DNA of 64,000 nt from Cyanidioschyzon merolae (taxonomy: Eukaryota), in the NCBI GenBank assembly GCA_000091205.1, contig AP006490.2; one strand, given 5' to 3'. The translations under genes and the position numbers were made by a program. Below are positions 1,700-52,964 of this stretch, in pieces. The first letter of the stretch is position 1, and every line of letters begins with the position of its first letter. The notes below the pieces were generated by a model that saw only the letters and a list, made by a program, of their open reading frames with translations, was not told the origin of the DNA and did no database searches.

Positions 1700-2225
1700 T
1701 TTCGTTGGACATAAAGGCGGCGGTCAATGATACAGACTGCTTCACAACTGTGGAGGGCAAATATGTCTCCCTACCCGCAGACCCGTCTCGCTCTTTTTCA
1801 ACCGGCGTCTTGCTATTGTTTTCAGCTTCTCCTTTTAACCTTCGAGTCTGGGAGACTGTCCGACAAAGTTGTCTCGCGTCAGCTCCTCGGGGCCCGACTT
1901 CAGCAGTATACATCGTCGGCTATTGATGGAGGCTTGAAGACTTAGTCCACGAATTCTATGCGTTCACTGCCTCAGGTGGAACTCATCTATGCAAGGATTG
2001 CTCGAACTCGAGCTCACTTTGCCGCCGCGGCCTCGTTATTGTCCAGTCGGGCAAGCCCTCTTTCACGACTTTCTCTCCCGTACTACTTCGTCGTCGTCAC
2101 TCATTCGTCTTCGCTCGATGGTTGGCAAGAAGAGGATTTTCGTCTTTTTCCTAGTCGCACGCGATGACGGCACTCCAGGATCTCAGACTTCCATTCCGAG
2201 AACATTCCCTTGGGTTTTTTGTTTT
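1700..2225 (-). mobile_element. short (~0.5 kb) 3'-terminal derivative of the Fanzor/TnpB-like element family (sense on minus strand)
   Basis: Translations 1958..2167(+) and 1989..2228(+) parallel antisense frames of the 13.9-14.4 kb copy (LPQVELIYARIARTR / LPLVELINARIARTR). Minus-strand frames resemble the element 3' region (…TPVEKERDGSAGRETYL ~ …RPVKKDREVSACGY). Ends are approximate. Confidence 0.4.
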
Positions 2226-4430
2226 TGAAAATGAAATCACTTCGAACAAGTATGCTATAAACCTCGAGAAAGCATTTGATTATGCTCACCAGGGGGTGGG
2301 ACACAATTGAGGTGGAGGAATAAAATCCCTTCGTGGACGAATATCCGCTAACGGTTAGAGCTAGAATAAGAAAACCAATACGGAATTGAAGCCGTAAATG
2401 CCAGTGCATACTCTCCGATTCTCCACGCTTGATCCGCTTTTTCGCCATATGGAAACGCTCCGAGCATATGAGAAAAAATTGCTTTGCGAATGGCCATATC
2501 GAAAACGTTCCGAGAAAGCGTATCTCCTCAGGCGCTTAAACAGTTGTCTGAGAGCGTAAGACTACCACATCATCCCATTTATGCAAGTACACTACAATGG
2601 GAAGCTTTTTACAGCATTCCGGTAGCTGTCTCGCCTTGGATGGTATAAAAATGAGCAGTCGAATGTACGTGCTTCATCAACGGCAAGTACGCTTTGGAAT
2701 CGATAAAATATATAGCAAGTAAATTCTGAGACTTCTTTATCGAAAAGTCGACAACCCGTTTTTCATTCTCGAATATACGATTCATTGGGTGTTTGCTTCT
2801 GCGAAGATATGAGCCGATTAAAATGCACTCTTCCAGGGAACTAAGGAAGATGGAGAAACCCAATCAGCGGGCGACAGCTCGCGTTGGAGAATTCAAGACC
2901 AACTCAGAGGTTTTTCGCAGATCCACGTCACGACCAAGGCGCACTAAAAACAATTCTGAGAGCGGATTAAGAAATAAATGTTTCTCTTTGATGGAGTTTT
3001 TCTTGATCACTGAAATGCCGACCAGTGCCAAATAAAACATACTCCCGAAGGTGAATTCGTCAAAATTCGAATTCTAGCGGCAGGTACCGAAATATGAATC
3101 AGCGTTTTGGTGTGGTGCAAAACATATTTGTCTTTGGCTTCAAAGAAGAATTACCATGCCATGAAAGTGACCGTATTCAATACATCGGCCGCAGGCTCTC
3201 TTATTGGGCAGTCACCCGAGATAAGCGGAAGCGACGCGAGGTCGGCCGCACTGTAAGAGGTCCTGCGGATAAGCTCCGCCAGTTGCAATTAAATTTACCA
3301 GTAACTGGCTCGGCAACTTGAACGATCGATTTTTTCAACGAATAAAATGCTCGATTAAGCGATATATGCTGGTATCGAGTACTAATCGTTTATGGAGCGC
3401 ATCACAAAAAAGGATGCGAAACCGGTTACTATAGCAAAGAGATTACAGTCCGAAATATGCTTGAATACGCGCATGCTATTTGTATCAAAAATGAAAAATA
3501 GCTCTAGGATCTAGAGCGACACGGGACAGAATTCAGGAAAAAAGTAAAGCATTCCAGAGAGTTTCCCATTTTCAACTGAGAACCACCACCCAGAAAATCA
3601 TTCGCGTCAAGTCGATCTTAGGCTCTCGGAGGATCTCCTGTACCAATACTTACATAAATTTTGAAAAGCATTCTTCACGATCATTTCTTTCCATTAAATT
3701 TCAGGCTGTGAAGTAAATCCATACCCAGCTTTCTCTTGCCTCGACTTTTTCTGCGATACTACTCATCCACAGCCAAGAGATTAGTGAATACAGGACAGCA
3801 TTTCATCGAGTGGGGACGGAATGCATTCCAGCCAATGCAGAACAAGTTACTTCACGAGGATGCTTGAATTGTTACTCGCCGCTTGGCGGCAAAGTCCCTG
3901 GTAGGGTGTGTCTGCGCGTCCGAAGGCATCGGGTTTAAGAAATCGGGATCGGCCGCTACAAAACATCGCGCGTGCTCATCGAAATTCTATGTAAAAATTT
4001 GATTTAAAAATTCCCGGTGCCATAGCTTCGAGCAAACCCATACGATTTATTACCGCTAAACTGGTTCGATACAATGCCTTTGATTTAGAAATCATTTTAC
4101 GAAAAGGACGGCTTGTTCCCTGGGCTGCGGGCTTTGAATATTTCGCTGTTTTTTGGCAGAGTCGATTATCACATGCTGCCTGGATCACTGCATTTCGTAG
4201 GGGTGCTGGCTGGATGGCATCGTACTTTCTGTATTTAACCTGGATTGGAATAGCAGCGTGTTATTCACTTCGAAATGCTCGGGACGCTGACTTTTTTATG
4301 CACTCGTTAGCTGAACCACACGAGTTTTTAATCTTCCTCTTGCGCATATACTGGGAGTGCTGCATAAATTGGGGGACGTTCCGATCGCCCGCAAAGCGAC
4401 CAATTAATCAAATCCGTCTTGTGATTATTT

Positions 4431-10112: not shown

Positions 10113-11547
10113 AACCTAATCGTAAAAGAGATGCACGAAACGATTGCAAAGCCACCCAACGGTGCTATGGCACAGCAGCCTCTCCGTGGCACGACCTTCG
10201 GAGCCGGATCACTGAAAGTGACGAGGAACGATCACAAGTGTTACCGTTTGAAACTAAATACGAGCCTCTTGGCTTTCCGGGACCGACCAGAGAAGATGAA
10301 TTCTGACGAAAACCCAGTATTGGAGGAGCGGCGCACTCAGAACAAGACTTTGCAGTGGCATCTGCGATTCGGAGTGCGTATCCATGTGCCCTACATATGA
10401 ACACGAGTGACGCGAGCCATATCTTTTCATAGTTTTGACCAAGGGCGCCGACAAGAGGTTGTAGAGAGAGAAAGAGAACGAGCGCATGGCAGAGCTTTGC
10501 ATAGAAACAGCGGCGGCAAAGGCCAGTCCTCGAACTGGTGGGCCCTGCAGTTGTGCCCGCCCGTGAGCAGCGAGCATTCTAATAGGGGAAGAACGAGGAG
10601 AAACTAACCGCTAACTAGCAACTCGATAACAGTGCTGTTTGACATTGATAGTAAGCGTTGAAAAGGGGAAAGTTTCCGTATCTTCGAAAGCTTACCCTAT
10701 AGGCGGAAGGTCCCGCTAGCCGGACGAGTCTCCAAGGATCGTGCTTTATGCTCCTCCAAGTGGAAGGTGCTGTATTGAAATCTGAGCGGATCGTCCGCAA
10801 CGCAATTCATTCTGGGACTAGGAGCGCGTATGCTGCGTCTGGGCGTCGCCTTGGTCGCAGTGGGCTCTTTGTAGATCGGTTCGCGCTATCGCAGGCTCCC
10901 AGAATAATTATGTACTCCGACGTCGTGTCGGATGAATTACGCCTCGAGCCGACGCCCTCAGTGGAATGGCAATGCCGTCCTGTATCCGTGCAGCATCTGC
11001 TTCAGCGGGATAAGCGCAACGGCGGGTGCTCACGGCAGGCAGTCGTCGCAGGACAGAACGTGCGAGACGACCAGTATATCCGAGAGGAAATATCGGTAAT
11101 GGAACTTGAATGTAAGTGCTTCATGATGCACGCCTTCCCGGAAGCCAGTCTCCGTTCCGAATTCTGGGATCCATCGTAAATGTAAACTTTTTGTCATCTG
11201 CAAAAATCTGCGATTCGGAAGCATCGTCAATAATGGACGCTTCTTTTGCTAGTGTCCTGGGTAGATAGCATCGTCGCTCTCTGAGCATGGCGGTTTTGAT
11301 GTGGTACAGACTGTCGCTATGGCGCTGTGTGCCTGCCTGGATCGCCTCTGTTTCATTCAGCGACAGTACGTCTTTGAGTCCTTGTTCGCGTGCCACTGCG
11401 GGCTTGCGTGAAAGACTGAATATGCGTTTTCCTTATGTTTTCATAGGAACGCGCCCACTGTCTTTTTCTTGAGCGCTTGGAAGACTTGCTACACTTGTTG
11501 CAAAAGAGGGAACACTGTTTCGGCAAACCGGGGAAAACTTGCTGGTT

Positions 11548-12471: not shown

Positions 12472-13859
12472 ATCGGGCTTACATGCTAAAATTTGGGCCT
12501 CTTCCGACTATCGTCGACTCTAGCGGTTGCGGGCTCTTCTTCCAACTGCGTCTTTCTCTTCTCTCATATCGCCCGCCATAAATGCGTCGATTTTTACTGT
12601 AACTCCAGCGCTGTTTTTGGCAGTCGAATGATCTTCACTTCAGGCTGAAGTTTCGATTTCACCGCTTGCGGTTGTCGTTTACCCATGGCGCGTACAGGCG
12701 ATAGTTGAGATCTGCGCTACGCTTGCGAATTTCATCTTATTCATATAAACCCTGTGTGTGGCCTTCACAGCTTTGACACTTGAATGCAATCAATAGTTTT
12801 CATGTATACACCACACTCCCCGTACCGCGGGCTGCCTTCTAGCAGAAGAACGCTCGCTTTATCGCCGGGTGCATGCCCGCGATGGCAAGAGAAGGTTCGC
12901 ATCGATGCTCTATTTCGTTTACGCTCCTGGTTCCGTACTCTAAGATCACAGCTTCGTCTAAACAATCCTGTTTGCAACTAATTTAACCGCTGCTCGTGCA
13001 AACGCATACTAATTCATTCGATAGGTCACTCCCTGCTTCCCATCACGTCCTTGATTGAGTTCTAGATTGGTTTGAACCATAGTCAAAAAGTTGGAGAGTA
13101 TGTTATCACCAATCCTCTGCTCATTGTTGTTTCCCGTGCAGTTGAGTACTTTTAAAATGCAACGTTACCAATTATGGAACAAGCATCGGAAGGAAGATCC
13201 AGGCTGGACATCAAGTCATGAAAAATTCCGTCCGTCTTAGCTATTCTCTTGCAAATCCGTAAGGCATGCTCCATTGGAAGCGCTTGCTGCGATGTTTGGA
13301 GTCCGGGCCCAATACCACTTTCCATGCAAGTAGAAGCGACGGAAGCTTCTGGGAACATGTACCCTAAGACGTACTGCGCTGCAGCGGAATATCGTTCTGT
13401 TACTAGCCGGAAAGGGAGAAGGAGCTGGCATTCGAAACGAGTCTCGTACATTACCAGAGGAGGTCTGGGAACTTTCTGAGTAAGATTTTGAAGATTTTAT
13501 CAAGGTCGATATCGACTGTTTTCCTCATCAATATTGCGGAGCGAATCGCTTTGCCTACGAGTCCCCTGAGGCCGAAAGATCGAAATTTTGAAGAATGCGT
13601 GATTTGTAATTGCTGAACATGAGCAATATAGAAGAGTGAGGCTTGTTGAGAGAGTTGGATAATGTTTTCGGTAATTTTGGGATCCCTTGTTCGTGGTCGT
13701 CGCGAAACATCTGGAGTCCGATGACTTGACAAATTCTGTCGGCAAAGTGTTGAAGGAGCCAACCTCAAAAGACAGCCGAGATTCTATAACGACGTATGAA
13801 TGCCAGAATCCTTCAAGTCTTTCACCTGAATTGCGTTCCAGCCTCAGGAGACTACAATC

Positions 13860-14440
13860 AAATGCTTTTTCATGGTTTATGGAAGATGAGTGCGAAGTGC
13901 GCTCATTTGAAGAAATAAAAATCCAAGGCAAAGGTATAGAAGTTGAAGCCCACGATCTTGGGGGCCCGCTGGCACCGGATTTGGAGAAACTACGAAAAAA
14001 AATCCTCATCTCGCCGACAATCTTGCGAAGAATAGCGAACGACGAAGAAGAAGAGAGGAGGTAGACGAGAAAAGGTGTTTGCCCTACTGGACAATGACGA
14101 GACTGTAGTGGCATATAGGTCACGAGTTCTAGCAATCCTTGCATTGATGAGTTCAACCAGAGGCAATAAACGTATGGAGTTCGTGAACCGAGACTTCAGC
14201 GTCGCGATCAATATCAGAACATGTGCGTTGCTTTACACGAGTCCCGAGAAGCTGGCCCAATTCCTTCTTCGTGGGACAACTTCTCAGGCTCGAAGTGTAC
14301 AAGGAGAAACTGAGACCGATAGCACTCGACCGGTCAAAAAGGACCGGGAGGTGTCTGCGTGTGGATATTAGTTACCCTACACGGTCGAGACACATTTTTT
14401 GTTTCGTTGGCAGTGAACTGCAGGAATCGAGCGAGTGGTT
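13860..14440 (+). mobile_element. short (~0.58 kb) 3'-terminal derivative of the Fanzor/TnpB-like element family (sense on plus strand), ending about 165 nt upstream of the MT-A70 ATG
   Basis: ORF 14075..14371 encodes …GNKRMEFVNRDFSVAINIRTCA…, a RuvC-III-like motif. This aligns with 33829..34134 (…GKKRMQFVNRNFNAAINIRKCA…) and 47663..47896 (MEFVNRDFNAATNI…). The upstream frame 13687..14064 parallels the zinc-ribbon region. Homology to the 1.7-2.2 kb copy starts at the same internal point. Confidence 0.5.
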
Positions 14441-19501: not shown

Positions 19502-22500
19502 CGCTATGAGCCGGCACTACAGTGAGCGAGAAGCGTCGTTCCTGCCAAGTTTGGGGCGTAGGACACCATACCTCTTCCACCGCATCGTACAAGACGAGAT
19601 TCTTGAGACCGTCGACGCAGTAAAGCCTTCCTCTCACGCGCTGGCGCTCGTCCTGGAGCAGCACTAGAAGTTCACGGTGAAGCAGTGACTCAAGGAACGC
19701 CCTTCCTTCGTTCGCATTGTGGACGCCCATGAGTTTGTAGACGTCTCACCTGTAAAGCGAGATGCAAGAGCCTACGCAGCTACCGCTCTCAAAGTGAAGC
19801 ACATAGCTTGACGGCTAGCGCATTAAGATAACATTAATAGTTTGGATCTCTATTGTATGGGAACTCCGACCAGACGGAAGCTGCACACAAGCAGCAGCAC
19901 ACAGCCTGCCGTTCCTTGCACTCGAAAAAAACCTCATTTGTCTGCAGTGTTCCACGGGGGCGCCAGCCTCCCTCGTGGAGTGCGCACCATGGTGGCGTTC
20001 GCGAAAAACTTAATGTCCTCTTGTCTGAAGCCTGAAATCCCGTGTATTTATGGTGTATCAGTGCAAGTCTGAAAGGACATGCCCGTATACGCAAGCTCTG
20101 CCCGTGGTTAACGAGTGAAACTATGTTGTTTGACGCTTGCGATGGCATTGTTTAGCCTCCCTTTCACGGCCCGATCTAAGCGACTGTATCCCAAGCGCTC
20201 CAGCGAATGCCTCTGCTACGCCTGACAAACCGGGAAACCATGTCGTTAGATTGATCGAGCCTCCACATTCTCGGGTTTCATCATAAACTGGAACCGGTGG
20301 CTCGTAGGGACTCGTGTCAAGGTATTCATCCAGCCTTCACGCCGGGTGTTCATCTCCAAATGGAATTGGTTGAACGGAGGAGCGTCCGTGCTAAAGTCGG
20401 GATCTCCCAGTCGCTTTTATGTAGAGGAGTGAAATGCAGAACACGTATACAAGCACATTCCTCTCGGTCTTATTTATTTTTCCCATTGGTAGTCAACAAA
20501 ATCACTGTTGCGTTTGTACTAGAGAAAGACTGCAGAAAGACCTGATGCCCTCATTGCTGGACATCGAACAAACCGGCTTTACCTCTACAAGCCAGTTATT
20601 TGATGCTAAGCATGTGGACCTACCGCCCTTCTCGTAGTCCTCATTCTGAGCACCGAGCACCAAAAGCAGTACTCATCAGTCGCTATCTACACGACTGTCT
20701 CCTCCTCAATCATTTCCACTCGATTCTTTTTCGAAGAAAGACTACTGAGGAACCCACAAAACGGTGATCACCCTTTTCGTCCATACGAAGGAGACAAAGA
20801 AACACGGACTGATAGCAATAAAATCGCGCTTCTAGAGGAGACCGTCGAGGTTTTTTGCAGTATGCTGTCGCTTTGCGAATGAAATGAGAACGTTCGTTAC
20901 GGTACGGACGGTTGTTCGTCTCATTTGATGCGGCTTCATTCAGGAGAAATGCTAGACCTATTAATAGGTAATCAGAAGAGTGCAAGCGAATGCTATTAAA
21001 GCCGAGAGGAGCGAGAAGGACGATAACAGCTCTAATCGCGATTCAAACATATGGTTGCGTCCAAATTGTCCAATGGACATTATTGTGCAGCACCGTATCC
21101 TTCACTGAAGCACTCATCCAGTCTTTCTTCATACATTCTTGTGTCCTGCTATCAGACAGCATCGATTCCCTTGTCTTAAAAGAGGGCAATTGTACGCAGG
21201 CAGGATTCGCACTCAGCTGCTCTTCGTCCCAGCATATTATCCCTGGTTGTGTCATGTCGTCAGCATTAACCACCTTGTCAAACGACACTTCTACCCTACA
21301 GCTGCAGTAGACGAGTCAATCGCAACTGTTGCACCATTCTTCGAAGAGTCTTTGAAGGAGAATTTGTGTCCAGTGTTCATTTGTCCTGAACTGATTTGTG
21401 GCTCCTCTGCTTGTCGCCGGGAAAGAGCCGAAAGGCTCGCAAAGTTTCGATATCTTTCTCGCGATGTGGTAAGTGACGAAGATATTCCTGAAGATTGATA
21501 AGCTACAGCGTTGGACATGATGGAGTGCGCAATGCCCGTGCTCATACTCCTTCCAAAAGAGCATAGAACGTGTGAAGAAAATCTATTCTCTACGATTTTC
21601 ATCGATGAGTTCAGGTTGACACACGCATTACGAGCGCGGATGCACGCTGAAACTGATACGGAAGTCGACAGTGCAACAGGAGCCGATACACGAGCTGTTG
21701 TATGGTAAACTGACCAACAGCGAGATTACGAAGCCATCAAAGGCAAGAGACTTGATATTACGTGATTTCAGTAGTAATTATGCGCACGAGCACCTTCTGC
21801 ACAGAGACTTGAAAGCTCTGATCAAAATCCGGAAATGGTCCCGGCCTCCAGAGCGCCCAGTTCCTTTATGCCAAGCGAAATTTCGAGCAATTGTTTTTTG
21901 CACAGTGTGGTCACGAAGTTGAAACGAGAATGATTTGCCATTATAAGAGTCAATTGCAAAGAGAGAGGACGGTGGATTCTCGCACGGAGTGAGGTACTAG
22001 AATGGTACGGTCCACATTTCAAGGCTGGAGCGCTATTTATCCAACGCAAATGGCGTCGCTGGGCACTTAGCAGACGATAATGGTGTTCATTTGTTCGATA
22101 TTACTGAGCATGCATATAGCTATCCCTGATTTGGCAAATTTTAATTACACTCATCGATTCTGCAGCCGAAACTCTACGACATCTGGCCTTCCCAAAGCGC
22201 GCGCGTCAGTCATATTATCGAAAAGACGCTGGTCTGCTACAATTTGGCTTGCTTGTTCTGCTCCCCGATCGAGACTCTTCGTAAGAGTTTGCTCGCAAAT
22301 ATCAACCGCTCTGGCTGTATCGAACGTCGCTTTGGTACAGGCGTCTATGATGTTGATGTCCGCAAGGCCCTGCTAAGCTAAAACCAAACGTTTCACGACG
22401 ATCGAGGAAAGCTTTTCAAACGAAACGCTGCATATTCGTGGGAGAGTTTGTATCGAGATTAGGCGTATTGCACCGATCGAGCATCGAGAAATAGACGACG

Positions 22501-24337: not shown

Positions 24338-24422
24338 GCTGAGAACCCGCTGCCGACAGCGAACGCCTTTCAAAAGAAAAACGTTGCTGCCGGCGGTGGA
24401 CAGGAGCAGCGAGGAAGCCGCC

Positions 24423-25527
24423 CTAGACAAGACGTCTCCAACTTACGTACAGACGCCTCCCAGTCTCTTTCGACCGGCCACCCACTACTGGTTCCAACTT
24501 TTTCTCATATAATCCTACCTTAAGCGGTTGTCCAACAAAATATTCTCTTGTCAACTCCGGAGGTCTTCTTTCCATCACCGCACATTTCCTTATATTGATA
24601 GCGGCGTTAAAGTTTCGATTCACAAACTGCATGCGTTTCTTGCCATTGGTAGTTGGACTCACTAGTGCAAGTAGTCCACGAACTTTCGTCCTCCTTTCCA
24701 CTTGCTCTTTCGTCAGCGCTCCGAACATTTTTATATCCTCAGGGGTCTGCTGGCACTTTTCATCTCCAATCTCTGACGTTTACACCCCAATTGGTGGTGT
24801 GTATTGGTCGTTCGGAACTCATCTATCGGTATCGTGACGAAACGGTATGCGCACTCCTTGTACGCTCGTGTCGTTGGAGATGGCGCACACCTTTTTTTCG
24901 ACGCCCAGCGCCTTGCTCCGTATGCCACTACGAGCCTCTGACTCTTGTGCTCCTTCAGGGCGCTCAACTGATTGAAAAAGTTCGCGAGCGCGCGCCGCTT
25001 CCCACAATACAGGTTCACACGCAGAGGAGCCCACCGGCGATTTGTATACTCTTTCCACAGCGCCTCCCAATGAGCAGCGCGAACTTCCATGAATTTCAGA
25101 AAAGTCTGAAAGTCCGCTCCGCGGCTCGTCACCTCGCTCATAGCTTCCAGGTGGTCCTTCATTCCTTCGTTCCACATCTCGATTTTCTTCCTCGCATTCA
25201 TCATACCGGATTCTCGATAGTATCTCGCTCTCGAGAGCTTTAAAAGACGCATGTCTTTCTGACTTAAGTTGCCTTCAATGCCTCTTCCGCGCGCTTGGGT
25301 GCTGCGATGGCTATAATATTCGTGTTTCTGGGGTCCGCGCCAACGACAACGTCGTTCTCATGTACTTCTCGCGTCGCATGACCCGCCTCCTTCTCATCTT
25401 CATGCTTCGCCGCATCAACGACAAAGTCGGTCTCCTGCACCTCCTGCGTCGCAGGTTCCGCATCCTTCTTTTCTTCATGCTTCGCCGAGTGCGAAGCCGA
25501 AGACGGAACTGGACGATCCGCCTTCAA
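24423..25527 (-). pseudogene. C-terminal catalytic half of TnpB/Fanzor-like protein in copy A (RuvC-I, RuvC-II region, degenerate zinc ribbon, RuvC-III), split across three frames
   Basis: frames change at 25264/25252 and 24731/24728; RuvC-III Asp position is Asn (NRNF) in this copy. Confidence 0.6.
25369..25520. repeat. ~75-nt imperfect tandem duplication inside copy A (mirror in copy B at about 33037-33188)
   Basis: duplicated peptide AKHEEKKDAEPATQEVQETDFVVDA / AKHEDEKEAGHATREVHENDVVVGA immediately N-terminal to the RuvC-I motif; copy C has a single unit. Confidence 0.5.
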
Positions 25528-27996
25528 GAGCCGATAGTGTGCACATACGGGTACTCCATCGCTTTCGGTTATCCCCGTGAATATCTTTTTCTTGCCCTTA
25601 TTGAGACGTTTGAAGTCGGATATAGTTTTCCAAGAAGTCTAGAGGTTTCCACCAATAGATGCCTCCCCGCTTACATCTAACTCCGAACTGATCTCCAGCA
25701 TTACGTTGTGAATGTCGCTGGCGTCGATTGTCACAAAATGTGACTTGACGCCGCCGAGAGCAACGACGCTGAAGCGCCTCTCCGGAAACACAGCCATCCG
25801 TTTCGCCGACTCTCTATTTTCCCCCTACTCATCTGCAGTTCGGCCTTGCGTTCGAATTCTCGGTTCAGGAACACGAAATAGCGCAGGATGAGGGGATAAT
25901 ATCTTTTTCCATATCTGATACCTATTCTGCTGGGCTGACCAGCCCCAGGACCGCACGGTGCTCTTGAGCAGCCGCAGGGATCACAGAAGCTGCATTCGTG
26001 CTCTTGGTTGATGTCTTCTTGTCGACAAATTCGATCTCCTGTCCATTCTTACTATCGTTCGTGATGCTGGCAATGATGGTCCATCTCGCCCAGTGTGAGA
26101 CGCCCAAGTAGAGAGCAAAATTGGAGCGTTTCATGAAGCGTTCCAGGTTCATGGCCATATGGGTCTTTAGGTTCGTGAGGGACTTGATCGCCCCGTATTC
26201 GTAAATACGCGAGTCACCCCTCTATCGAGTACCGTTGAAGCGGTAGTTGGAGTGATGTTCGTGGAGGGCATGTAATCGCTCATTTCTCATCGACATTTAC
26301 CCTGTGCCAAATATTAGGTCACCAATAAAGGTCTTGTTGAAAAACTCTTCCGGAATCTCGAATATTTTGATGTGCGTGACGTCGCGATACATCTCCCTCG
26401 CCATATACATCAGTCCCAAAGAGGCGTAATTAACACTCCTGGAGTACGACTCCACACGGTTTCTGACGGCCTTTTGCGTCTCTTGCTCGTAGGGGTCCTT
26501 GATATGTCCAAGAAGACAGGCGTTCACTACCATCTCGTCGTACTCTCATCTTTCATGCAGCATGTGACATCGGACCTCCTGCATCTGCTTCTTCGTTTTC
26601 TCGTGTTCCTCTTTGCTCGGCGCGGTTTTTCTTTTTTTCCCGGCGGCCGGCAACATCGGCCCTTCAGGATCCCGACTTGCATGTGCGCTGCTTTCCTTTG
26701 GCGTTTTTATTTCGTCAAGATGATCGCACGTCTTCTTGCTCTTAGATGGGGCCTTCTCGGAGGGAGGGGGACTTTCGCAAGAAAAGCGACATGTGCCCCC
26801 ATGTTTTAGCGTGTGCAGAACGCTCAGCGATTTACCCAGCGCAGTGTTCATCAAAATTCTCGATAGAAAACGCTCCTTAGATGCGGCCGAACCACGGCGT
26901 GTACGAAGTAATGAGAAGCAACCCTATCCCTACAGATTCGGCAAAGACTCGAACGCAAGGGGAACGGTAAAACATCACGTTGCCCGACAGAGGGATGTTT
27001 CCAGACGTCAGGGGAAGAGTCTGCAATGATTCGACGCAGTGGTCGGTACCGTTGTATGACCGCTATCTACGAGCGAAGCTGAGGCCACCAGATGAATCCA
27101 CTCCACCCGTACCAGATGATATTCTCGTTCTCTTTGAGTTCGATCATACACACTATGGGCGCCCTGCTCCGCGAATACCCATGTACGCTCCGACAGTATC
27201 GTCCGAAGCAAGTCTCATTGACTAGAAAAACAAATCGATGCCCCTGCGCTTCAAACCGATCGCGACGATCCGAAGACGCTGTTGTTGCGATGTCGTTGGA
27301 CGATGGCCGAGCGTGAAATTGGTATTCGTTTTTCCGACTGTATCGCAGTGATTTCAGGACCACACGAACAAGCTGGTGAGTAAGAGAGACACCCGTTGTG
27401 GCTTCTATCATCGCTTTTGCCTTCCACGCGGTGATGAATCGGTTGTTTTTTACCACGGACCCCAAGCACGCTTTGTGAATATCGGTTTTTTGATACGGAG
27501 CGGGTGTAGTGGTTTCTTTCGGTGTTCCTCAACCAGCTGAGTACTCTCGAAAGACTGACCTGAAGGAGGAATACATTACTTGCACGCTTCAGTCAAGGAT
27601 ATATATCCTACATGCAAATCGCCTATGTTCTATACGGTACATTGCAGAGTGATATCGATCTCCTCCTATACACTGCAGCAGGGGTGAAACGTAATTGAGT
27701 TGAAAGAGCGCAGCTGGGAACATCGACTGTGTCGCAGTTCGCGCGCCCTGTACCGCCATTGAAATCATCGCGATCGCCGCGCTAGCGCGGGACACCATCG
27801 ATCCGATCCGCATGGCAGCTCGCGGGACGTCATCGATCCAACGGAAAACTATTTTTCGACGGACTGCTCGCATCATGAGGGTCTTTGAGAGCCTCAAATA
27901 TTAGGCTGAAGTGAAGTTTCGCTAACAATTTGGGTCCTTGCTGCTTTAAGTTGAGGTGTTTTGGTTTAGTGAGCACCTCATCTTGGGACGAATTGG

Positions 27997-30300: not shown

Positions 30301-30856
30301 ACATCAGCACAAACCTGAAGATGCAGCCAGTCGTGCATATTGTGAAGCGGTCTTCTCGTTCCTAGTTGTTACTGCAGGAGATTGCTTGTCCGGCTGATGC
30401 TGGGTCTCACGTATGTTAAGGGCGAGAGCAATCAAAGTGTAACCTCCGTCGAATGACAAAGGGAGCGCAACGATTGCACCTCTGTGGAACGCGGAACTCA
30501 CTGCTCTCAACGCTTCGCAGAACGACGTGGGCCATCAGCTCGGTGCGCATGTTTGCTTTGCAGCTCTCGAGAATCAAATGAACTGCTGGCGTAGCGCAAA
30601 ATAGTGCCCAATTCGCGCGCTAGTGCTTGCGTAAATTTACAAATCGTCGGGATAGAGAATTTCTCAAGTCGGCGTCAGAACAGCCCGTTCTGCCACAATC
30701 CTACACGGTGCAGCTCCACATAAAACCCTTTTCCCAACCGATCCACGAATCCGACAAGACTTTTGCTCACTTGTGGCGCAATTCTGCGAAACATGGACTG
30801 AGCAAAGGAGAAGAAGGAGCCTGTCGCTTATTCTCGTGTACAACTAACGTCTTTCG

Positions 30857-33800
30857 AATCAATTACGTTTCACCCCTGCTGCAGTGTATAGGAGGAGATC
30901 GATATCACTCTGCAATGTACCGTATAGAACATAGGCGATTTGCATGTAGGATATATATCCTTGACTGAAGCGTGCAAGTAATGTATTCCTCCTTCAGGTC
31001 AGTCTTTCGAGAGTACTCAGCTGGTTGAGGAACACCGAAAGAAACCACTACACCCGCTCCGTATCAAAAAACCGATATTCACAAAGCGTGCTTGGGGTCC
31101 GTGGTAAAAAACAACCGATTCATCACCGCGTGGAAGGCAAAAGCGATGATAGAAGCCACAACGGGTGTCTCTCTTACTCACCAGCTTGTTCGTGTGGTCC
31201 TGAAATCACTGCGATACAGTCGGAAAAACGAATACCAATTTCACGCTCGGCCATCGTCCAACGACATCGCAACAACAGCGTCTTCGGATCGTCGCGATCG
31301 GTTTGAAGCGCAGGGGCATCGATTTGTTTTTCTAGTCAATGAGACTTGCTTCGGACGATACTGTCGGAGCGTACATGGGTATTCGCGGAGCAGGGCGCCC
31401 ATAGTGTGTATGATCGAACTCAAAGAGAACGAGAATATCATCTGGTACGGGTGGAGTGGATTCATCTGGTGGCCTCAGCTTCGCTCGTAGATAGCGGTCA
31501 TACAACGGTACCGACCACTGCGTCGAATCATTGCAGACTCTTCCCCTGACGTCTGGAAACATCCCTCTGTCGGGCAACGTGATGTTTTACCGTTCCCCTT
31601 GCGTTCGAGTCTTTGCCGAATCTGTAGGGATAGGGTTGCTTCTCATTACTTCGTACACGCCGTGGTTCGGCCGCATCTAAGGAGCGTTTTCTATCGAGAA
31701 TTTTGATGAACACTGCGCTGGGTAAATCGCTGAGCGTTCTGCACACGCTAAAACATGGGGGCACATGTCGCTTTTCTTGCGAAAGTCCCCCTCCCTCCGA
31801 GAAGGCCCCATCTAAGAGCAAGAAGACGTGCGATCATCTTGACGAAATAAAAACGCCAAAGGAAAGCAGCGCACATGCAAGTCGGGATCCTGAAGGGCCG
31901 ATGTTGCCGGCCGCCGGGAAAAAAAGAAAAACCGCGCCGAGCAAAGAGGAACACGAGAAAACGAAGAAGCAGATGCAGGAGGTCCGATGTCACATGCTGC
32001 ATGAAAGATGAGAGTACGACGAGATGGTAGTGAACGCCTGTCTTCTTGGACATATCAAGGACCCCTACGAGCAAGAGACGCAAAAGGCCGTCAGAAACCG
32101 TGTGGAGTCGTACTCCAGGAGTGTTAATTACGCCTCTTTGGGACTGATGTATATGGCGAGGGAGATGTATCGCGACGTCACGCACATCAAAATATTCGAG
32201 ATTCCGGAAGAGTTTTTCAACAAGACCTTTATTGGTGACCTAATATTTGGCACAGGGTAAATGTCGATGAGAAATGAGCGATTACATGCCCTCCACGAAC
32301 ATCACTCCAACTACCGCTTCAACGGTACTCGATAGAGGGGTGACTCGCGTATTTGCGAATACGGGGCGATCAAGTCCCTCACGAACCTAAAGACCCATAT
32401 GGCCATGAACCTGGAACGCTTCATGAAACGCTCCAATTTTGCTCTCTACTTGGGCGTCTCACACTGGGCGAGATGGACCATCATTGCCAGCATCACGAAC
32501 GATAGTAAGAATGGACAGGAGATCGAATTTGTCGACAAGAAGACATCAACCAAGAGCACGAATGCAGCTTCTGTGATCCCTGCGGCTGCTCAAGAGCACC
32601 GTGCGGTCCTGGGGCTGGTCAGCCCAGCAGAATAGGTATCAGATATGGAAAAAGATATTATCCCCTCATCCTGCGCTATTTCGTGTTCCTGAACCGAGAA
32701 TTCGAACGCAAGGCCGAACTGCAGATGAGTAGGGGGAAAATAGAGAGTCGGCGAAACGGATGGCTGTGTTTCCGGAGAGGCGCTTCAGCGTCGTTGCTCT
32801 CGGCGGCGTCAAGTCACATTTTGTGACAATCGACGCCAGCGACATTCACAACGTAATGCTGGAGATCAGTTCGGAGTTAGATGTAAGCGGGGAGGCATCT
32901 ATTGGTGGAAACCTCTAGACTTCTTGGAAAACTATATCCGACTTCAAACGTCTCAATAAGGGCAAGAAAAAGATATTCACGGGGATAACCGAAAGCGATG
33001 GAGTACCCGTATGTGCACACTATCGGCTCTTGAAGGCGGATCGTCCAGTTCCGTCTTCGGCTTCGCACTCGGCGAAGCATGAAGAAAAGAAGGATGCGGA
33101 ACCTGCGACGCAGGAGGTGCAGGAGACCGACTTTGTCGTTGATGCGGCGAAGCATGAAGATGAGAAGGAGGCGGGTCATGCGACGCGAGAAGTACATGAG
33201 AACGACGTTGTCGTTGGCGCGGACCCCAGAAACACGAATATTATAGCCATCGCAGCACCCAAGCGCGCGGAAGAGGCATTGAAGGCAACTTAAGTCAGAA
33301 AGACATGCGTCTTTTAAAGCTCTCGAGAGCGAGATACTATCGAGAATCCGGTATGATGAATGCGAGGAAGAAAATCGAGATGTGGAACGAAGGAATGAAG
33401 GACCACCTGGAAGCTATGAGCGAGGTGACGAGCCGCGGAGCGGACTTTCAGACTTTTCTGAAATTCATGGAAGTTCGCGCTGCTCATTGGGAGGCGCTGT
33501 GGAAAGAGTATACAAATCGCCGGTGGGCTCCTCTGCGTGTGAACCTGTATTGTGGGAAGCGGCGCGCGCTCGCGAACTTTTTCAATCAGTTGAGCGCCCT
33601 GAAGGAGCACAAGAGTCAGAGGCTCGTAGTGGCATACGGAGCAAGGCGCTGGGCGTCGAAAAAAAGGTGTGCGCCATCTCCAACGACACGAGCGTACAAG
33701 GAGTGCGCATACCGTTTCGTCACGATACCGATAGATGAGTTCCGAACGACCAATACACACCACCAATTGGGGTGTAAACGTCAGAGATTGGAGATGAAAA

Positions 33801-34202
33801 GTGCCAGCAGACCCCTGAGGATATAAAAATGTTCGGAGCGCTGACGAAAGAGCAAGTGGAAAGGAGGACGAAAGTTCGTGGACTACTTGCACTAGTGAGT
33901 CCAACTACCAATGGCAAGAAACGCATGCAGTTTGTGAATCGAAACTTTAACGCCGCTATCAATATAAGGAAATGTGCGGTGATGGAAAGAAGACCTCCGG
34001 AGTTGACAAGAGAATATTTTGTTGGACAACCGCTTAAGGTAGGATTATATGAGAAAAAGTTGGAACCAGTAGTGGGTGGCCGGTCGAAAGAGACTGGGAG
34101 GCGTCTGCACGTTAGTTGGAGACGTCTTGTCTAGGGCGGCTTCCTCGCTACTACTGTCCACCGCCGGCAGCAACGTTTTTCTTTTGAAAGGCGTTCGCTG
34201 TC
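30857..34202 (+). mobile_element. Fanzor/TnpB-like element, full-length copy B (mirror of copy A), sense on plus strand
   Basis: exact reverse-complement of copy A apart from about 4 substitutions and a 6-nt gacagc duplication near 34196-34207; ORF pieces 31092..31490, 31703..32011, 32024..32260, 32399..32635, 33030..33293, 33305..33826, 33829..34134. Confidence 0.65.
33030..34134 (+). pseudogene. C-terminal catalytic half of TnpB/Fanzor-like protein in copy B (mirror of 24423..25527)
   Basis: identical translation to copy A except one residue (…RRLHVSW… vs …RRLYVSW…). Confidence 0.6.
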
Positions 34203-34386
34203 GCTGTCGTGGCCTGCACAGAGCGAGCGCTCAGGATATTCTTCTAGCAACTAAGGTGTCCTGGGTTGAAAGCCTGGTATCCTGCGCAGTCAGAAGTACT
34301 TTTACTGGCACGTGATGATTGGAAGCAGTGGAGCTGTGCTCCGGGGCTTCCAGGTTTCGACTTCGTGATTCAGAGCCAGCTTCAAA

Positions 34387-42089: not shown

Positions 42090-42425
42090 ACCGCATCTTC
42101 AAGAGTTTGCGGTCGAGCATCGAACCGGAATCCGCCGCTACACGATACCTTCTATGTCAGAATAGAATGGAGCGGATCCTCTTCGCTAACTCTGGAGTAC
42201 GCACTAAAATTTTGCTCTCATGTCACCGTCATCAGAGGAAGCCTGTGTGGCCCTTATCTGCAACTGCTTCCTTTTCGTCTCTCGGATCTCCGGCTTTCAC
42301 CAGGCTGGTCTTTTATTTTCCTCTATATCTATTGCCAGCAACAGAAGCATACTCATGACTGCTTTAGAGTCCAGATTTCACTACTTCCGGCCGGCGTTCA
42401 TGCATTCCATGCACAGTAAAGCGGT
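42090..42425 (+). repeat. copy 1 of a ~330-nt non-coding repeat (about 75% identical to 55270-55625, same orientation)
   Basis: nucleotide-level similarity extends beyond the small ORFs 42220..42429 / 55399..55638 on both sides; the shared translations are only about 40% identical, so conservation is not protein-level. Confidence 0.45.
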
Positions 42426-47594: not shown

Positions 47595-50510
47595 TCGACA
47601 CAAGCGGTCGTGCCCGCGAGCAGCAGCGTACCCCAGTGTGTGAGGGCGAGGCAACGAAGGTTTCAACGGAGCGAAAACGTTTCGCGACTGCAGAGTACAC
47701 CAATACCGACGTACAGACGCCTCCCCGTCTTTTTCGACCGGCTGGCTGCCATCGGCTTCAGCTTTTCCTTGTACATTTCGACCCGGAGAGGTTCCCCCAC
47801 AAAATTGGCTCTTGTAAACTCCAGAGGTCTCCTCTCCGGCACCGCACATCTCCATATATTTGTAGCGGCGTTAAAGTCTCGATTCACGAACTCCATGCGT
47901 TTCTCTCCGTTGTGGCTGTACTCAATAATGTGAGTAGTCCTCGAACTTGAGCCCTCCGCTCCATTTCCTGTTCTGTCAGCTCTCCGTGCTTTTCTATATC
48001 CTCAGCGCTCCGCCGGCACTTTTCCATCTCGACCTGCTGAAATTTACACCCCAGCTCGTGGTGTATACATGACGTTCGAAACTCATCTACCAGTATTGTG
48101 ACAAAACTGTGTGCGCACTCCTTGTACGCTCGTGTCGATGAAGCTGGTATACTCCTTTTTTGGGAACCGAGCGCCCTGAACCGTATGCTATGATGAGCCT
48201 TGGACTCTTGGTCTCTTTGAGAGCGCTCAACTGATTGAAGAGATTGGAGAATGCATGTCGCTTCCCACGGTACAATTTCATACGCTGACGAGCTCAGCGG
48301 GGCTTTGTGTACTCTTTCCCCAGCTCCTCGTGATGAGCAGCTCGTGTTTCCATGAACTCTAGAAAAGCTTGAAAGTTCGCTCCGCGGCTCTTCACATTAC
48401 TGATCACTTCCAGGTGCTCCATCGCTCCTGCGTTCCGTTTCTCACTTTTTTCCTTGCATTCATTATTCCCCATTCTCGGTAGTATCTCGCTCTCGAGAAC
48501 ATTAAAAGACGCGTATCGTTTCAGCATAAGTTGCCTTTGGTACCATTTTTGCTACATTTGGGAGCAGGGATGGTCATGATGTTCGTGTTCCCAGGGTAAA
48601 GGACTACGACAACGTCGTTCCCCTGCAGCTCCTGCGTCGCAAGATGCGCCTCCTTTTCTTGATGCCTCGCCGAGGACGAAGCTGTAGACACAATAGGACG
48701 ATCTGCCTTCAAGCGCCGATAGTGTCCATACATGTATACTCCATCGCTTCCGATCATCCACGTGAACACCTTTTTCTTGCTCATTTTGCGACGTTTGAAA
48801 TCGAAGATATATCTACAAAATGACTCACGGTTTTCGCCAGTGAACTCCTCCCTGCTTACATTGAACTCCGAGCTGATCTCCCTCATGATACCGTCATGGG
48901 CTGCGAAGTCGATTGTCACAAAGTGCTACGTGATCTCGCATATCGGAACGACATGGGAGCGCTTCCCCAGAAGCGCAGCCTTCCGTTTCTCCGACTTTTT
49001 TCCCACAACCGGCTCCATTTCGGCCTTGCGTTCGAGTTCTCGGTTCACGAACGCGATGCAGCCCAGGATGAGAGGATAAAATCTATTTTCATCTTTGTTT
49101 CATATCTGATACCTATTCTACTGGGTTGACCAGCCCCAAAACTGCACGTTGCTCTTGAATAGTCGCACGGATCACAGAGGCGTCATTCTTTCCTATGTGT
49201 GATGTGTTCTCGTCGATGAATTCGATCTTCTTTTCATTCTTACTATCGTTAGCGATGCCATCGACGAGGGTCCATCTTGCCCTGCGAGATACGCCCGGGT
49301 AGAGTGCAAGTGTGAAGCGTACCATGAAGCGTTTGAGGTTCACGATCATGTAGTTCCTCAGGTCCGTGAGGTACTTGATCTCCCCGTAGGAGAAAATATC
49401 CGCGTCACCCCTGTGTCTAGTACCGTCGAAGCGGAATACGGGGTGAATTTCGTGGAGTGCACGTTCTTGCTCATTTCTCCTGGAGGTTTCCCCAATGCCA
49501 AATATCAGTTGACCAATAAAGGTTTTGCTGAGAAACCCTTCCGGGACATCGACTGTTTTGATGTGCGGCACGTAGCGATACATCTCCCTCGCCATATGCA
49601 TCAGTCCCAAAGAAGTGTTACGAACACTGTTCGCGAAGGAAGCGACACGGTTTCTGATGGCCCTTGCATCTCTTTTCTTGTACAGATCCTTTATACGGCG
49701 TTGAAGACAGGCTTTCACCAGCATCTCGTCGCACAGTTCTCTTTCGTGTAGCGTTTGACGTTGGGCCTCCTGCTTCTGCTTCTTTGTGTTCTCGTGTTCC
49801 GCTTTGCTCGGCACAGTTTTTCGTTTTTTTTCCGGCGGCCAACGACACCGTCCCTTTAGGATATTCTACTTCCATGTCTATATCCATGAGCGAAAGTGAG
49901 GCCGCCGAATAAATCCTCTGCAGATAGAACGGATGATGTCCTCTTTCTCATCGAGCTCGATCATACGCACAACGGACTCCCTCTCCGCAAATAATCACAC
50001 ACGCTCCGACCGGTTCGCCCGAAGCAAGTCTCACTGACAGAAAGGAATCGACTTCCCTGTGCTTCAGACCGATCGCAACGTTCCAGGAAAGCTGTTATTG
50101 CGAATTCGATGGAAGACAGCCGTGGGTGAACTAGGGCTCTGTTTTTGTGACAGTATTCGATTGTTTTCAGGACCACACGAACAAACTGGTGAGAAATGAA
50201 GGCGCCCGTTATGGCTTCTATCGTCGCTTTTGCCTTTCATACGATGAAAAATCGGTGGTTTCCTACCACGGACCGAAAGCACGCTTTGAGAAAGCCGGCT
50301 CTATGGCGCAAAGCGAATACATTTGTTTCTTTCAGTGCTCCCCACCCAAATGAGTACTGTGGTACGACTGGCCAGAAGGGGAAAGGCAATCTTTCTGGCA
50401 CTGTCCAGTGAGGAGTACATGCTACAGGCAATTCGTCTACGATCTATAAGGTACGTTGCATCGTGATTTCGACTACATAACATACACCGCAGCGAGGATG
50501 AAATAATATT
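47595..50510 (-). mobile_element. Fanzor/TnpB-like element, full-length diverged copy C (about 70% nt identity to copies A/B), sense on minus strand, interrupted
   Basis: Collinear ORF pieces 50301..50525, 50064..50282, 49113..49814 (233 aa, spanning three pieces of copy A), 48521..48919 (RuvC-I region, VVVVLYPGNTNIMTIPAP), 48294..48527, 48087..48281, 47663..47896 (MEFVNRDFNAATNI). Terminal nucleotide homology to copy A at both ends was aligned by hand. Confidence 0.6.
47663..48919 (-). pseudogene. C-terminal catalytic half of TnpB/Fanzor-like protein in copy C; RuvC-I Asp replaced (GADP to VLYP), private nonsense codon after …KEYTKPR
   Basis: same frame-shift position between RuvC-I piece and next piece as in copies A/B; stop where copies A/B encode Trp. 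Confidence 0.55.
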
Positions 50511-52964
50511 CTGTTGAAAGAACATAATCGAAGTCTCTGACTGCAGAGGTCTTGATTTGGTTTGAGATACAGGTAGCAGCCCCTATTCCAGATAAGCAGT
50601 GTACTGCGTGATGCCGTTCTCCTTGCACCTTTGAACGGGATGTTTTCGTCTTGATGTTCTTCGAAACATGTGCAGCAGCCAGCCCCGTGTCAGATCAAAA
50701 AGAGAGCACTTCACTTCTCTCTCTATTCCAGCTTTCCGATATTACCTAACTGCTTTACATGAACACTCTTGACATCCAAAGTGCAGCAACGCGCTGTTAT
50801 GGGTTCATACGTAGTTCTAGGCATCCAGGCCGTCTCCTGGACTATCTGCCTTAGGGCTTTGCTCCTGGAAATCTTCGCGTCACTGAAATTATGATAAATC
50901 CGCAACGCTTTCGAATAAGCGTTTGTAAAAGAATCGATTTCATTATCCAATTCATACGTTCTAGTCTCCAAGCTTCTCCTTTCCTTCCATGCAGCATGCT
51001 CGAATTTCAGAGTTTCCAAGCTTCGATCTCTCCCTTTCAGGGCGACTCGTGAGCGCGGCAATTGTCGCTGCTGGGTTGACAACGGAAAATCAGCCGACGA
51101 CTTTCCTTGAAAAATTCATTCCAAGCTCATGCCGAATGTTGACGTCGCTTCTTACGCCTAATTATTGGTACCATAATTTAGATAAATTGTCGTCTGTTTG
51201 TAGCTATCGAAGAAAGGGGCTTCCACAATAGCATGCTACCTGTTATGCGTTATGCTCCAAGTTGATTCCATGTCTTCTTCTTAGCTGGAAAGCGTCTTAG
51301 AATCGGAATGAACGCTTCCCAGTTATCCCTTCTGGTAGAGCGGGCGCCAATGATTTCAACGAAGGTAGCATAGACGAATCGAAATTCTTCGACTTGTCGC
51401 CCAAACTGGATATTCCTTGCCATAGGTATTCGATCATGGACACCATCGCACTCCACAAATAATCTGTCGAATGAGAGAGCATGCGCTTGCATGTGCAGCA
51501 CACAAAGTGCTCGCCGTTTGGATTGCCTAGAACAAGTCCACGATCGTACGGGTAAGGCACCGGGAGCGGAAGCAGTAATGGGCAACAAGGGTGAGCCTTC
51601 TGTACCCCTCAAGGACATCCAACGAGAAAGAGTGCAAGCGATCACGCGACGCTTTACTGCGCTCCGAGGAGTAGGTGTGGTGCGCATATAGGAGCACCTG
51701 ACAACAATGAAGTGGCACCGCTTCGAAGCGCTCACCAAGGCTCTATACTGGAAACATGGACATGTTTAGCGAAGCGTAGATCGCGTTTTTGGCTGGTGCA
51801 TCAAATGCATAGAGAACAGCCGGCAACTGCGAAAATGGGATTTTGATGCTTTTATCAATATCAGTTGATTGCTGGCAACGGAACCGGAGGGAATAGAGAG
51901 ACCGGCGTGTGTAGAGTTGGAAATAAGAGAGAGAAAAAGGAAGCAGTCGTGGGAAACCCCGCAAACGGTGGTGTTGATGAAGACCGAAGAGACTCAAATG
52001 CTAGTGTGTACACCAGAGTCCGATTCGTGGACTTGTTTCTTTCATTTTGACATGGGTGTAGGACTCTCCTGCCGAATACCGCACCCGTCGCAAACAAAAT
52101 ACGAGAGTCGGTACGCGCATTCAAAGTGCACGTGGTGCTGCGAATCTCCGATGCTCCCCTGTTCTGGAAACTCTATGCCCTGAAGCCTGGACGGCAACCT
52201 GGTTGGAAACCTATCTGTCACGAACAACCTTGCGAACTACGTTTAAGCCCTGCAGCATCACAGAAAAGCTGACTCAAATCCGAGCTGGAAACGTTGCACT
52301 CGGTGCAGTGTTGCTTTTTCAGGGTAAAGCGCGAAACAAGGTCGCGTGTGGGAGTTCACCAAAACGAACAGTATTCCATTCGAAAAACGTGCAAGTCGTT
52401 GCCATGTTGCTTGCAACAACACGTTGTGGCGTCTTTTCGGTTCGTTGCGCATAATCGCCGGTGTTAAGCGAGTTGCCTGGGTGAAGAGCGGAAATGTAAC
52501 GCGATACTAGCAACGATGCGTATCCCGTGAACGAGAGGCAGGTAGGAGCCCGCGGTCTCAAAGAGCAAGGCGATTTCCAAAATCAGGCCAGAACGATTTC
52601 TTCCAGCCAAATCTATCAACAGGCGAGAGCTTCATTGGCCGGGTGGGTATTAAACTCAACACACAACGGCCTCCGTGATCCACGACTCCCGTTCTGCATT
52701 CCTCGGAGGAACACTGGCTCGATCGATCTCGTGAGCCGCAGTGTGCTGTGCGCGAACGCACGCCGCTTCCGGTAACGCTGCCGGTAGGCCGATTTCGGGC
52801 GATGAAGCGGGCGCTGCGAACGCTTGCAACTGCGCCCACTTCTGACAGCTCTCTCGGCGCGTGAAAACTCGGGGCGACTTCCGGTCGCGATCGTACGCTT
52901 CAAGAGAGCCTGGGGCTAGAGGAGAAGCTGTAGACACTTGCGCGACGTTTTTCGGTTTTGCGTA

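Follow-up and report, generated by a model that had tools for sequence, protein, structure and literature searches.

We compared two short segments, A and B, on opposite strands of the window, the 64,000-nt stretch of Cyanidioschyzon merolae DNA analyzed here, and found that they are very probably two old insertions of one ~0.6-kb non-autonomous element, derived by internal deletion from a Fanzor1-encoding parent. The original prediction had described both as 3′-terminal derivatives cut at the same internal point. This description does not hold, as the segments combine ~290 nt from the 5′ end of the parent element with ~300 nt from its 3′ end, and the annotation is corrected from a 3′-end-only unit to an internal-deletion element with exact boundaries and a mapped junction. 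The short family belongs to an ordinary type of non-autonomous transposon and is not a new sort of 3′-end unit.

Table 1 Short and full-length element copies in the window and complete short copies at related loci. Loci outside the window are labelled L, with positions as in the respective locus.
Feature	Position	Strand	Description and basis
Short copy A	13818..14409	+	~592 nt, complete (5′ part, junction, 3′ part); local alignment with B
5′ terminal motif of A	13818..13845	+	TCTTTCACCTGAATTGCGTTCCAGCCTC; alignment with copies 1, 3 and L040
Leader and N-terminal remnant of A	13846..14100	+	~118-nt leader and remnant of the first ~57 Fanzor1 codons; colinear with full-length relatives
Deletion junction of A	14090..14112	+	parental regions of L040 beside seven short copies
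3′ part of A	14112..14409	+	remnant of the last ~85 Fanzor1 codons and ~55-nt tail; hmmsearch, nhmmer
Short copy B	1725..2319	-	same structure as A; local alignment, protein and DNA profiles
5′ terminus of B	2319-2292	-	
Deletion junction of B	about 2045-2022	-	
3′ part of B	2022-1725	-	
Full-length copy 1	24354..27707	-	3354 nt; Fanzor1 pseudogene at 25821-24444
Full-length copy 2	30850..34203	+	inverted twin of copy 1, 7 mismatches
Full-length copy 3	about 47647..50521	-	~76% identical to copy 1
Sixth, older Fanzor1 ORF relic	21502..21900	+	hmmsearch E=9.7e-8, profile positions 324-412
Further complete short copy, L045	8268-8851		same start, junction and end as A and B
Further complete short copy, L016	13097-12514		same start, junction and end as A and B
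Further complete short copy, L053	10824-11422		same start, junction and end as A and B

A comparison of the window with itself by blastn pairs A 13823-14362 with B 2314-1773 at 69% identity (E=3e-52). Local alignment extends the match to both complete copies, which are 68% identical over ~590 nt, with 64-75% identity in every 100-nt block. The predicted pair of short homologous segments on opposite strands is therefore real, but its coordinates were off: the true homology begins 42 nt (A) and 94 nt (B) further upstream than had been proposed and stops about 30 nt earlier. The two peptides that had been set against each other as the common start, FSWFMEDECEV and MFSEWKSEILEC, are out of register with the DNA alignment, in which A 13866 pairs with B ~2271 and not with 2205. 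Past either end of the copies, nothing could be aligned between the flanks of A and B by blastn or by local alignment. The claim that the upstream sequences are unrelated is thus correct for the flanks outside 13818 and 2319 and incorrect for the first ~290 nt inside them, which are the 5′ end of the element. Different 5′ breakpoints or a larger duplicated host block, either of which would have told against a common unit, were looked for, and neither was found: the two copies have the same ends and unrelated flanks.

B is present at the same place in 8 of 8 near-identical contigs from other samples that carry the neighboring RuvBL1 gene. No empty site for B was found among these eight contigs, which represent near-identical strains, and as B is present in all of them, no TSD or target can be read there. 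A look-up of the PP2C ORF between copies 1 and 2 for empty sites found it not on record. The host is a cyanidialean red alga: its RuvBL1 in the window shares 81% identity with the Cyanidiococcus yangmingshanensis protein and 65% with the one from Cyanidium caldarium.

The breakpoint that A and B had been said to share is the 5′ terminus of the element, because their first ~290 nt correspond to the element's own 5′ end, composed of a 28-nt terminus, a leader, and ~57 N-terminal codons. The terminus of the element begins TCTTTCACC…; A begins TCTTTCACCTGAATTG… and B begins TCCTCCACCTCAATTG…. In A, this terminus matches that of copy 1 at 21 of 28 positions, that of copy 3 at 20, and that of the full-length copy at L040 at 22. 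The 28-nt terminus at the start of A and B also opens window copies 1-3 (20-21/28 matches), and at least 20 matches were reached by random 28-mer pairs from the window in only 2 of 200,000 trials, about 1e-5 per pair. The full-length element at L040/L038 starts TCTATCACCTCAATT… straight after an unrelated flank, with no upstream arm. A and B are colinear with L040 from nucleotide 1, at 71% and 69% identity, respectively (E about 1e-11). A low-complexity artefact is unlikely, because the first 124-144 nt of this alignment, which are not low-complexity, align at 69-71%.

The same region was recognized in many relatives. An nhmmer profile made of A and B finds more than 50 full-length relatives with its first ~180-300 positions (E 1e-6 to 1e-21). 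The matched region, which in these relatives comprises the leader and the first ~57 codons (MKKQVHDPGGP…KK…RRLYDEKVV), precedes the ORF segment detected by the protein profile by about 1.03 kb. The start ATG of the family reads ATA in A (13936-13938), and the N-terminal remnant of A contains DPGGP and a K/R/E-rich stretch; the consensus translation of this remnant is MDMEVEDPGGPSLPAAGKKKK…, compared with MKKQVHDPGGPWSPAARKKQK… in L007. Inside the window, the 5′ half has a weak nhmmer match to copy 1 at 26732-26591, which looked compositional at first (bias 19.9) but proved to be genuine homology of the leader and N-terminal region, set apart by a ~950-nt module. A reading of the 5′ half of A and B as a decayed colinear continuation of the ORF, based on a four-way MAFFT alignment (NQMLFHGLW / SQRLVVAYG), was rejected: the region has no protein-profile match in any frame and aligns significantly with the 5′ end of the element.

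The match to the 3′ end of the element had been claimed to span ~550 nt and is limited to ~300 nt by both protein and DNA profiles. The protein profile detects A at 14099-14275 and 14235-14363 (hmmsearch, E=1.4e-12 and 1.9e-5, positions 355-443/444) and B at 1939-1841 (positions 388-420), and positions 816-1054 of the DNA profile of full-length 3′ ends are matched by A with E=9e-36 and by B with E=9e-25 (nhmmer). Upstream of these protein matches, no Fanzor homology was found in any of the six frames of A or B with the protein profile; since the protein homology in A runs only from 14099 onward, only ~300 nt represent the 3′ end of the element. As a Fanzor1 gene, the short copies cover profile positions ~355-443/444 only and are devoid of RuvC-I/II, WED, and REC. 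The retained coding remnant begins past the RuvC-II/DEFRT motif, at …ERRAKVRGLL…. In A, it contains …VLAILALMSSTRGNKRMEFVNRDFSVAINIR…, carries the RuvC-III motif and a frameshift, and is followed by a tail that ends …GTTTCGTTG; the same tail is found in copy 3 and in other short copies. The two retained parts meet in a patch where the 5′ parental sequence (…GACGATACGGTGGTG) resembles the 3′ parental sequence (…GACGGAAGAGCAAATGG). This similarity, …GACGA.AC.GTGGTG vs …GACGGAAGAGCAAATGG, is short and imperfect.

The ORF of the parent occupies the 3′ two-thirds of the long element. The encoded protein has hundreds of homologues in hot-spring metagenomes, with 1,570 relatives at E<=1e-3 in a representative library. 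A profile of 48 diverse relatives (A4), two of which, P0015 and P0012, share 68-71% identity with the window ORF, matches the Fanzor1 structures from Parasitella (PDB 9cf0, E=1.1e-18), Spizellomyces (PDB 8gkh, 2.2e-12), and Guillardia (PDB 9cer, 4.2e-5). The split RuvC motifs are D (GxDPG), E (DEFRT), and D (NRDxNAAxNI); in A4, D176 and E348 are invariant and D417 is nearly so. The parent is accordingly a Fanzor1 element, because its profile matches solved Fanzor1 structures and the RuvC D/E/D columns are conserved. Searches of the PDB with single sequences (phmmer) or with a shallow profile gave no match, and neither Pfam nor NCBIfam contains a family for the window ORF fragments or their close homologues; a sub-threshold Cas12f1-like_TNB match was obtained with Pfam for 2 of 10 relatives. 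An AlphaFold2 model built on a shallow alignment was unusable (pLDDT 33).

Three full-length copies are present in the window. Copy 1 carries an additional 5′ module of ~950 nt (27680-26740), and its F-type tail closes with a strong hairpin; its gene contains several frameshifts, and the Asp residue of RuvC-III is changed to Asn. Copies 1 and 2 flank the PP2C ORF and read NRNFNAA, and copy 3 keeps NRDFNAA. Copy 3 has the same 5′ terminus, is devoid of ~378 nt of the 5′ module, and carries the 3′ tail of the short-copy type; it matches the short-copy profile at positions 306-601 (nhmmer). With frameshifts in every one of them, all Fanzor1 copies of the window are pseudogenes.

In order to place A and B among their relatives, 80 related loci, about 1 Mb in total, were fetched and searched with the nhmmer profile of A and B. 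The contigs outside the window are metagenomic, and some of the copies may stem from related species rather than from the genome that the window represents. The search for more short copies, which the original prediction had proposed, yielded three further complete ones with the same start, junction, and end (L045, L016, and L053), whose flanks differ on both sides and which thus lie at unrelated loci. At least six more copies (L017 twice, L068, L029, L052/L046, and L085) have the same junction and 3′ end, with the ~950-nt module of window copies 1-3 in place of the first ~77 nt. Taken together, 12 copies of the A/B lineage have a common junction sequence and 3′ homology from profile position 800-816, and 5 of the 12 (A, B, L045, L016, and L053) also have the same 5′ terminus and unrelated flanks. 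Copies with the same ends and junction at unrelated places mark the lineage as an amplified family of internal-deletion non-autonomous elements, with both termini in common with a full-length partner and one junction at unrelated loci. The proposal that A and B represent a discrete, separately propagated non-autonomous unit is borne out by the same-junction copies at unrelated loci, and so is the argument that they are not two random truncations, their junction being common to further copies. Over the 150 nt common to all classes, short copies are only slightly more similar to one another (0.66) than to full-length copies (0.63), and common descent is for this reason argued from the junction, the 5′ end, and the tail type, and not from a tree.

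Mapping of the derivatives onto the DNA profile of full-length 3′ ends revealed three deletion lineages, with 3′ breakpoints at profile positions ~800-816 (A, B, and 10 others), at exactly 704 (L041, L019, L085a, and L056), and at ~898 (L054/L059 and L016 8140). None of the three has lost any of the final ~240 nt of the element. Since the 3′ breakpoints differ among the three lineages, a breakpoint common to several copies is a sign of shared ancestry within one lineage and does not mark a functional boundary.

The short copies are old. A and B are 78.5% and 71% identical, respectively, to the consensus of the other short copies (21-29% diverged), and pairwise diversity is ~0.34 among short copies vs ~0.18 among full-length ones. 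By codon position, the diversity of the short copies is 0.31/0.33/0.39, a weak signal, whereas that of the full-length copies, 0.17/0.13/0.25, shows a clear one. Across the entire 3′ part of the short copies, pairwise diversity stays at ~0.3-0.4 and no conserved block stands out. Decay has gone further in B, whose RuvC-III remnant contains stops, than in A. The mini element has lost the coding capacity for a nuclease or a transposase, and the window copies A and B are probably inert relics.

No TIR, TSD, or constant flanking base was found in A, B, copies 1-3, or more than 40 copies at other loci; inspection of the ends and flanks of the short copies thus revealed neither the TIR nor the TSD of a strict MITE. 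In most full-length relatives, the tail closes with a strong hairpin at its very end, the stem sequence of which differs among subfamilies (copy 1, -16 kcal/mol, z=-6.0; L038, -25 kcal/mol, z=-6.8; L062, -11.3 kcal/mol, z=-3.2). The tail type of the short copies and copy 3 forms no significant hairpin (z -0.2, +0.7, -1.2, and +1.0), and a terminal hairpin of the short copies that was plausible by eye was discarded, as a z of about 0 rules against it. At the other end, most full-length relatives have a conserved arm of ~165 nt, which contains the palindrome GCGCTCAGTGAGCGC and lies upstream of an internal TCTTTCA motif, and subfamily-specific sequence beyond this arm. The 5′ ends therefore vary on a constant 3′ end, as was reported for MCi-2 and for CRe-1/2/3 copies (Bao & Jurka, PMC3627910). 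TCTTTCA is the end of the element in the short copies, L040, and window copies 1-3, and is internal in most full-length relatives. Some traits of these ends are Helitron-like: the TC start, the F-type tail hairpins with three unrelated stems (z -3.2 to -6.8), and a palindrome near the 5′ end of the arm-bearing relatives (z -2.4). The CTRR end and the A/T flanks of Helitrons are absent from the ends inspected. The 3′-retaining truncated or internally deleted copies of CRe-1/2/3 have been attributed to one-ended, rolling-circle-like copying (PMC3627910).

In the scenario that we favor, the progenitor would have been a ~2.4-kb Fanzor1-encoding element of the CMe-1A kind in a cyanidialean red alga of hot springs. 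One internal deletion at the short similarity patch would have removed about 1.8 kb, nearly the whole nuclease gene, leaving a mini element of two pieces: ~290 nt from the 5′ end (terminus, ~118-nt leader, and about 57 codons) and ~300 nt from the 3′ end (the final ~85 codons, which include the RuvC-III motif, and a ~55-nt tail). Its presence at many unrelated sites shows that the mini element was copied as a unit. It would have been moved in trans by the putative machinery of the full-length elements and, by analogy with the studied Fanzors and with PATEs, a mini copy, once transcribed, could have relied on Fanzor1 protein from another source.

Other origins of A and B were weighed against this scenario. 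That both are 5′-truncated fragments of the 3′ terminus with the same internal truncation point, by chance or through selection, hence a 3′-end-only unit, is extremely doubtful: it is true that their last ~300 nt agree with the element's 3′ end, and Chlamydomonas Fanzor1 families are often 5′-truncated with intact 3′ ends (PMC3627910), but the ~290 nt that precede the 3′ homology are the element's 5′ end, colinear from the first nucleotide, the common start is where window copies 1-3 and L040 have their 5′ terminus, and the other deletion lineages have different 3′ breakpoints. A very unlikely alternative is that separate full-length insertions each suffered the same microhomology deletion in situ and that no mini element ever transposed. 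The likeness of the 5′ and 3′ parental sequences around the junction could favor repeated deletions, and over the common 150 nt the short copies resemble one another barely more than they resemble the full-length copies. However, all copies of the lineage share a start devoid of the ~165-nt arm that is usual in full-length relatives, as well as a tail type and end point (…CACTGA) that are absent from most of them; moreover, the similarity patch is short and imperfect, and the other derivatives used other junctions. A segmental duplication of the host, or retro-copies of a spliced element transcript, is barely credible, having nothing in its favor beyond the existence of two similar segments; both flanks are unrelated and the same ends recur at further unrelated loci, and a spliced-transcript origin was rejected, as the junction sequences reveal no GT…AG boundaries of the deleted segment and the copies have no poly(A) tail.

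The retention of the 3′ end raises the question of a guide RNA. In Chlamydomonas reinhardtii, extra copies of the 3′ guide-RNA region are dispersed in the genome (PMC3627910; PMC10530073), 20 extra fRNA copies having been noted (PMC10530073), and bacterial PATEs often keep ωRNAs that would need to act in trans (PMC10055086). By analogy with these two cases, the retained 3′ module may once have specified such an RNA, and the retained 3′ part would carry the cis-acting 3′ end and probably the scaffold of a Fanzor guide RNA (ωRNA/fRNA). The cis requirements of transposition explain the retention of the 3′ end equally well. Rfam and tRNA scans of the window were empty. RNAalifold found essentially no structure or covariation on 16 short or short-tail copies, and local hairpins on 21 full-length copies, with any double change in 5 of 43 pairs. 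That the mini elements are maintained today as stand-alone genes for ωRNA/fRNA-like guides acting in trans, or have been domesticated, would agree with the ωRNAs of PATEs, with the at least ~240 nt kept at the 3′ end in all three deletion lineages, and with the persistence of B in the eight contigs, near-identical strains though these are. It is nevertheless highly improbable, given copies 21-29% off their consensus, a 3′ part with no conserved block, consensus structure, covariation, or Rfam match, and Fanzor1 copies that all read as pseudogenes in the window. A related reading, rather doubtful but less so, would make the mini elements and the two other lineages protein-less guide-RNA carriers, in which the 3′ module was transcribed from the 5′ leader and Fanzor1 acting in trans aided retention or copying. 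If true, they would be a eukaryotic counterpart of the ωRNA-bearing PATEs, and the minimal cis module of a Fanzor1 element would be defined.

Fanzor1 elements, their short companions, and defective copies that retain the 3′ end were already known, and the family has been described in this algal clade (PMC3627910). CMe-1A of C. merolae is a ~3-kb Fanzor1 family with about 150 copies that are ~80% identical to their consensus (PMC3627910); it has no TIRs, and its TSDs were left undetermined (Bao & Jurka 2013, PMC3627910). The element studied here resembles CMe-1A in its host clade, in coding for Fanzor1 only, in its old copies devoid of TIRs, and in having a short non-coding companion. The companion of CMe-1A, TE-N2_CMe, is 635 bp long and corresponds to the 5′ 635 bp of CMe-1A (PMC3627910), whereas here, in a comparison made with the published description only, 5′ ~290 nt are joined to 3′ ~300 nt. 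The Helitron2-type Fanzor1 families CRe-1/2/3 of C. reinhardtii are alike in their truncated or deleted copies with an almost always intact 3′ end; they differ by their Helitron2-like ends, variable TSDs, and Helitron partners, while no TSD or ATIR was found here and the short copies have no significant 3′ hairpin. PATEs of the IS200/IS605 group (PMC10055086) are likewise minimal TnpB-type derivatives that keep both ends, and often the ωRNA, and need proteins in trans; unlike the present elements, they are prokaryotic, far shorter, and mobilized by the TnpA Y1 transposase via hairpin ends. The likeness to Ds elements derived from Ac, or to MITE-like elements, lies in one microhomology deletion, the retention of both termini, the loss of coding, and amplification in trans; the difference lies in the absence of recognizable TIRs or TSDs. 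The three independent lineages that lost almost the whole nuclease gene form a natural deletion series, which keeps the 28-nt 5′ terminus and the last ~240-300 nt. This series narrows down the location of the cis-acting ends of a red-algal Fanzor1 element, and perhaps of its guide-RNA scaffold, and could guide experiments in the tractable C. merolae.

Finally, the window holds six copies of the element and not five, as had been claimed. The sixth is a decayed relic of the ORF that has no match at the DNA level and was detected by the protein profile. It spans the RuvC-II DEFR… motif through RuvC-III, with a weak extra match at profile positions 309-323, and its extent differs from those of A and B.

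The two long Fanzor1 elements named copies 1 and 2 are arranged as an inverted pair and are separated by a segment of 3142 nt, which contains a PP2C ORF (27997–30300). They carry identical frameshifts, and six of their seven mismatches fall at most 100 nt from the arm ends. Judged from sequence, the similarity of these copies looks like the result of homogenisation by gene conversion rather than of very recent insertion. In both, RuvC-III reads NRNFNAAINI (24590–24625 in copy 1), with the catalytic Asp replaced by Asn; the corresponding segment of copy 3, the third long element, reads NRDFNAATNI (47800–47835). The 75-nt repeats found within the ORF code for acidic units of the type KHEDEKEA.PATQEV.DNDFVV, whose number varies from 2 to at least 6 in the homologues. 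The sixth Fanzor1 ORF relic is visible at the protein level only and differs in extent from the short copies A and B.

Features of the Fanzor1 elements and their positions in the window, or in the named metagenome loci
Feature	Position	Strand	Remarks
3'-terminal hairpins	24354–24394; L038 2403–2436; L062 2623–2647		
Direct end likeness	13818–13829 vs 14398–14409		Same ends in other short copies
Inverted pair, copy 1 + copy 2	24354–34203		5' ends point inward
Sixth, older Fanzor1 ORF relic	21502–21900	+	…FIDEFRLTH / THYERGCTLK…HRDLKALIKIRK…
Two tandem 75-nt repeats within Fanzor1 ORF	25335–25484 and 33070–33219		
Extra ~950-nt 5' module	26740–27680, 30877–31817; partial 49881–50494		In the window's long copies

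Most full-length relatives carry a conserved arm of ~165 nt on the 5' side of the TCTTTCA motif (8806–8971 in the metagenome locus L007, and more than 30 other loci). This arm begins close to the perfect palindrome GCGCTCAGTGAGCGC, and past it the sequence is specific to each subfamily. The short copies, the metagenome locus L040 and copies 1–3 are all devoid of the arm. The extra 5' module of the long copies is also present at the head of deletion derivatives of ~1.3–1.5 kb (L017, L019, L029, L041, L056, L068, and L085). It contains an ORF remnant (27465–27067) with weak HTH_33-like or DDE-like resemblance, at a Pfam E value of only 0.04, and may be the counterpart of the TE-N2_CMe-type companion element described for C. 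merolae.

At the opposite end, the full-length copies terminate in a 3' hairpin for which three unrelated stem sequences were found, with z values of −3.2 to −6.8; tails of the type found in the short copies and in copy 3 show no significant 3'-terminal hairpin. The 5' terminus TCTTTCACCTGA is similar to the 3' end of the short-copy consensus, …GTTTCACTGA(C), and the likeness is direct rather than inverted. It could be the signature of a Crypton-like recombination site, or could have arisen by chance.

The metagenome locus L048 (4995–5699) contains two incomplete copies of the short type in head-to-head arrangement, with an overlap at ~5358–5370. The window also holds two diverged repeat pairs with no relation to the Fanzor element, one direct (42151–42391 and 55339–55579, 72%) and one inverted (10942–11125 and 59108–59291, 74%).
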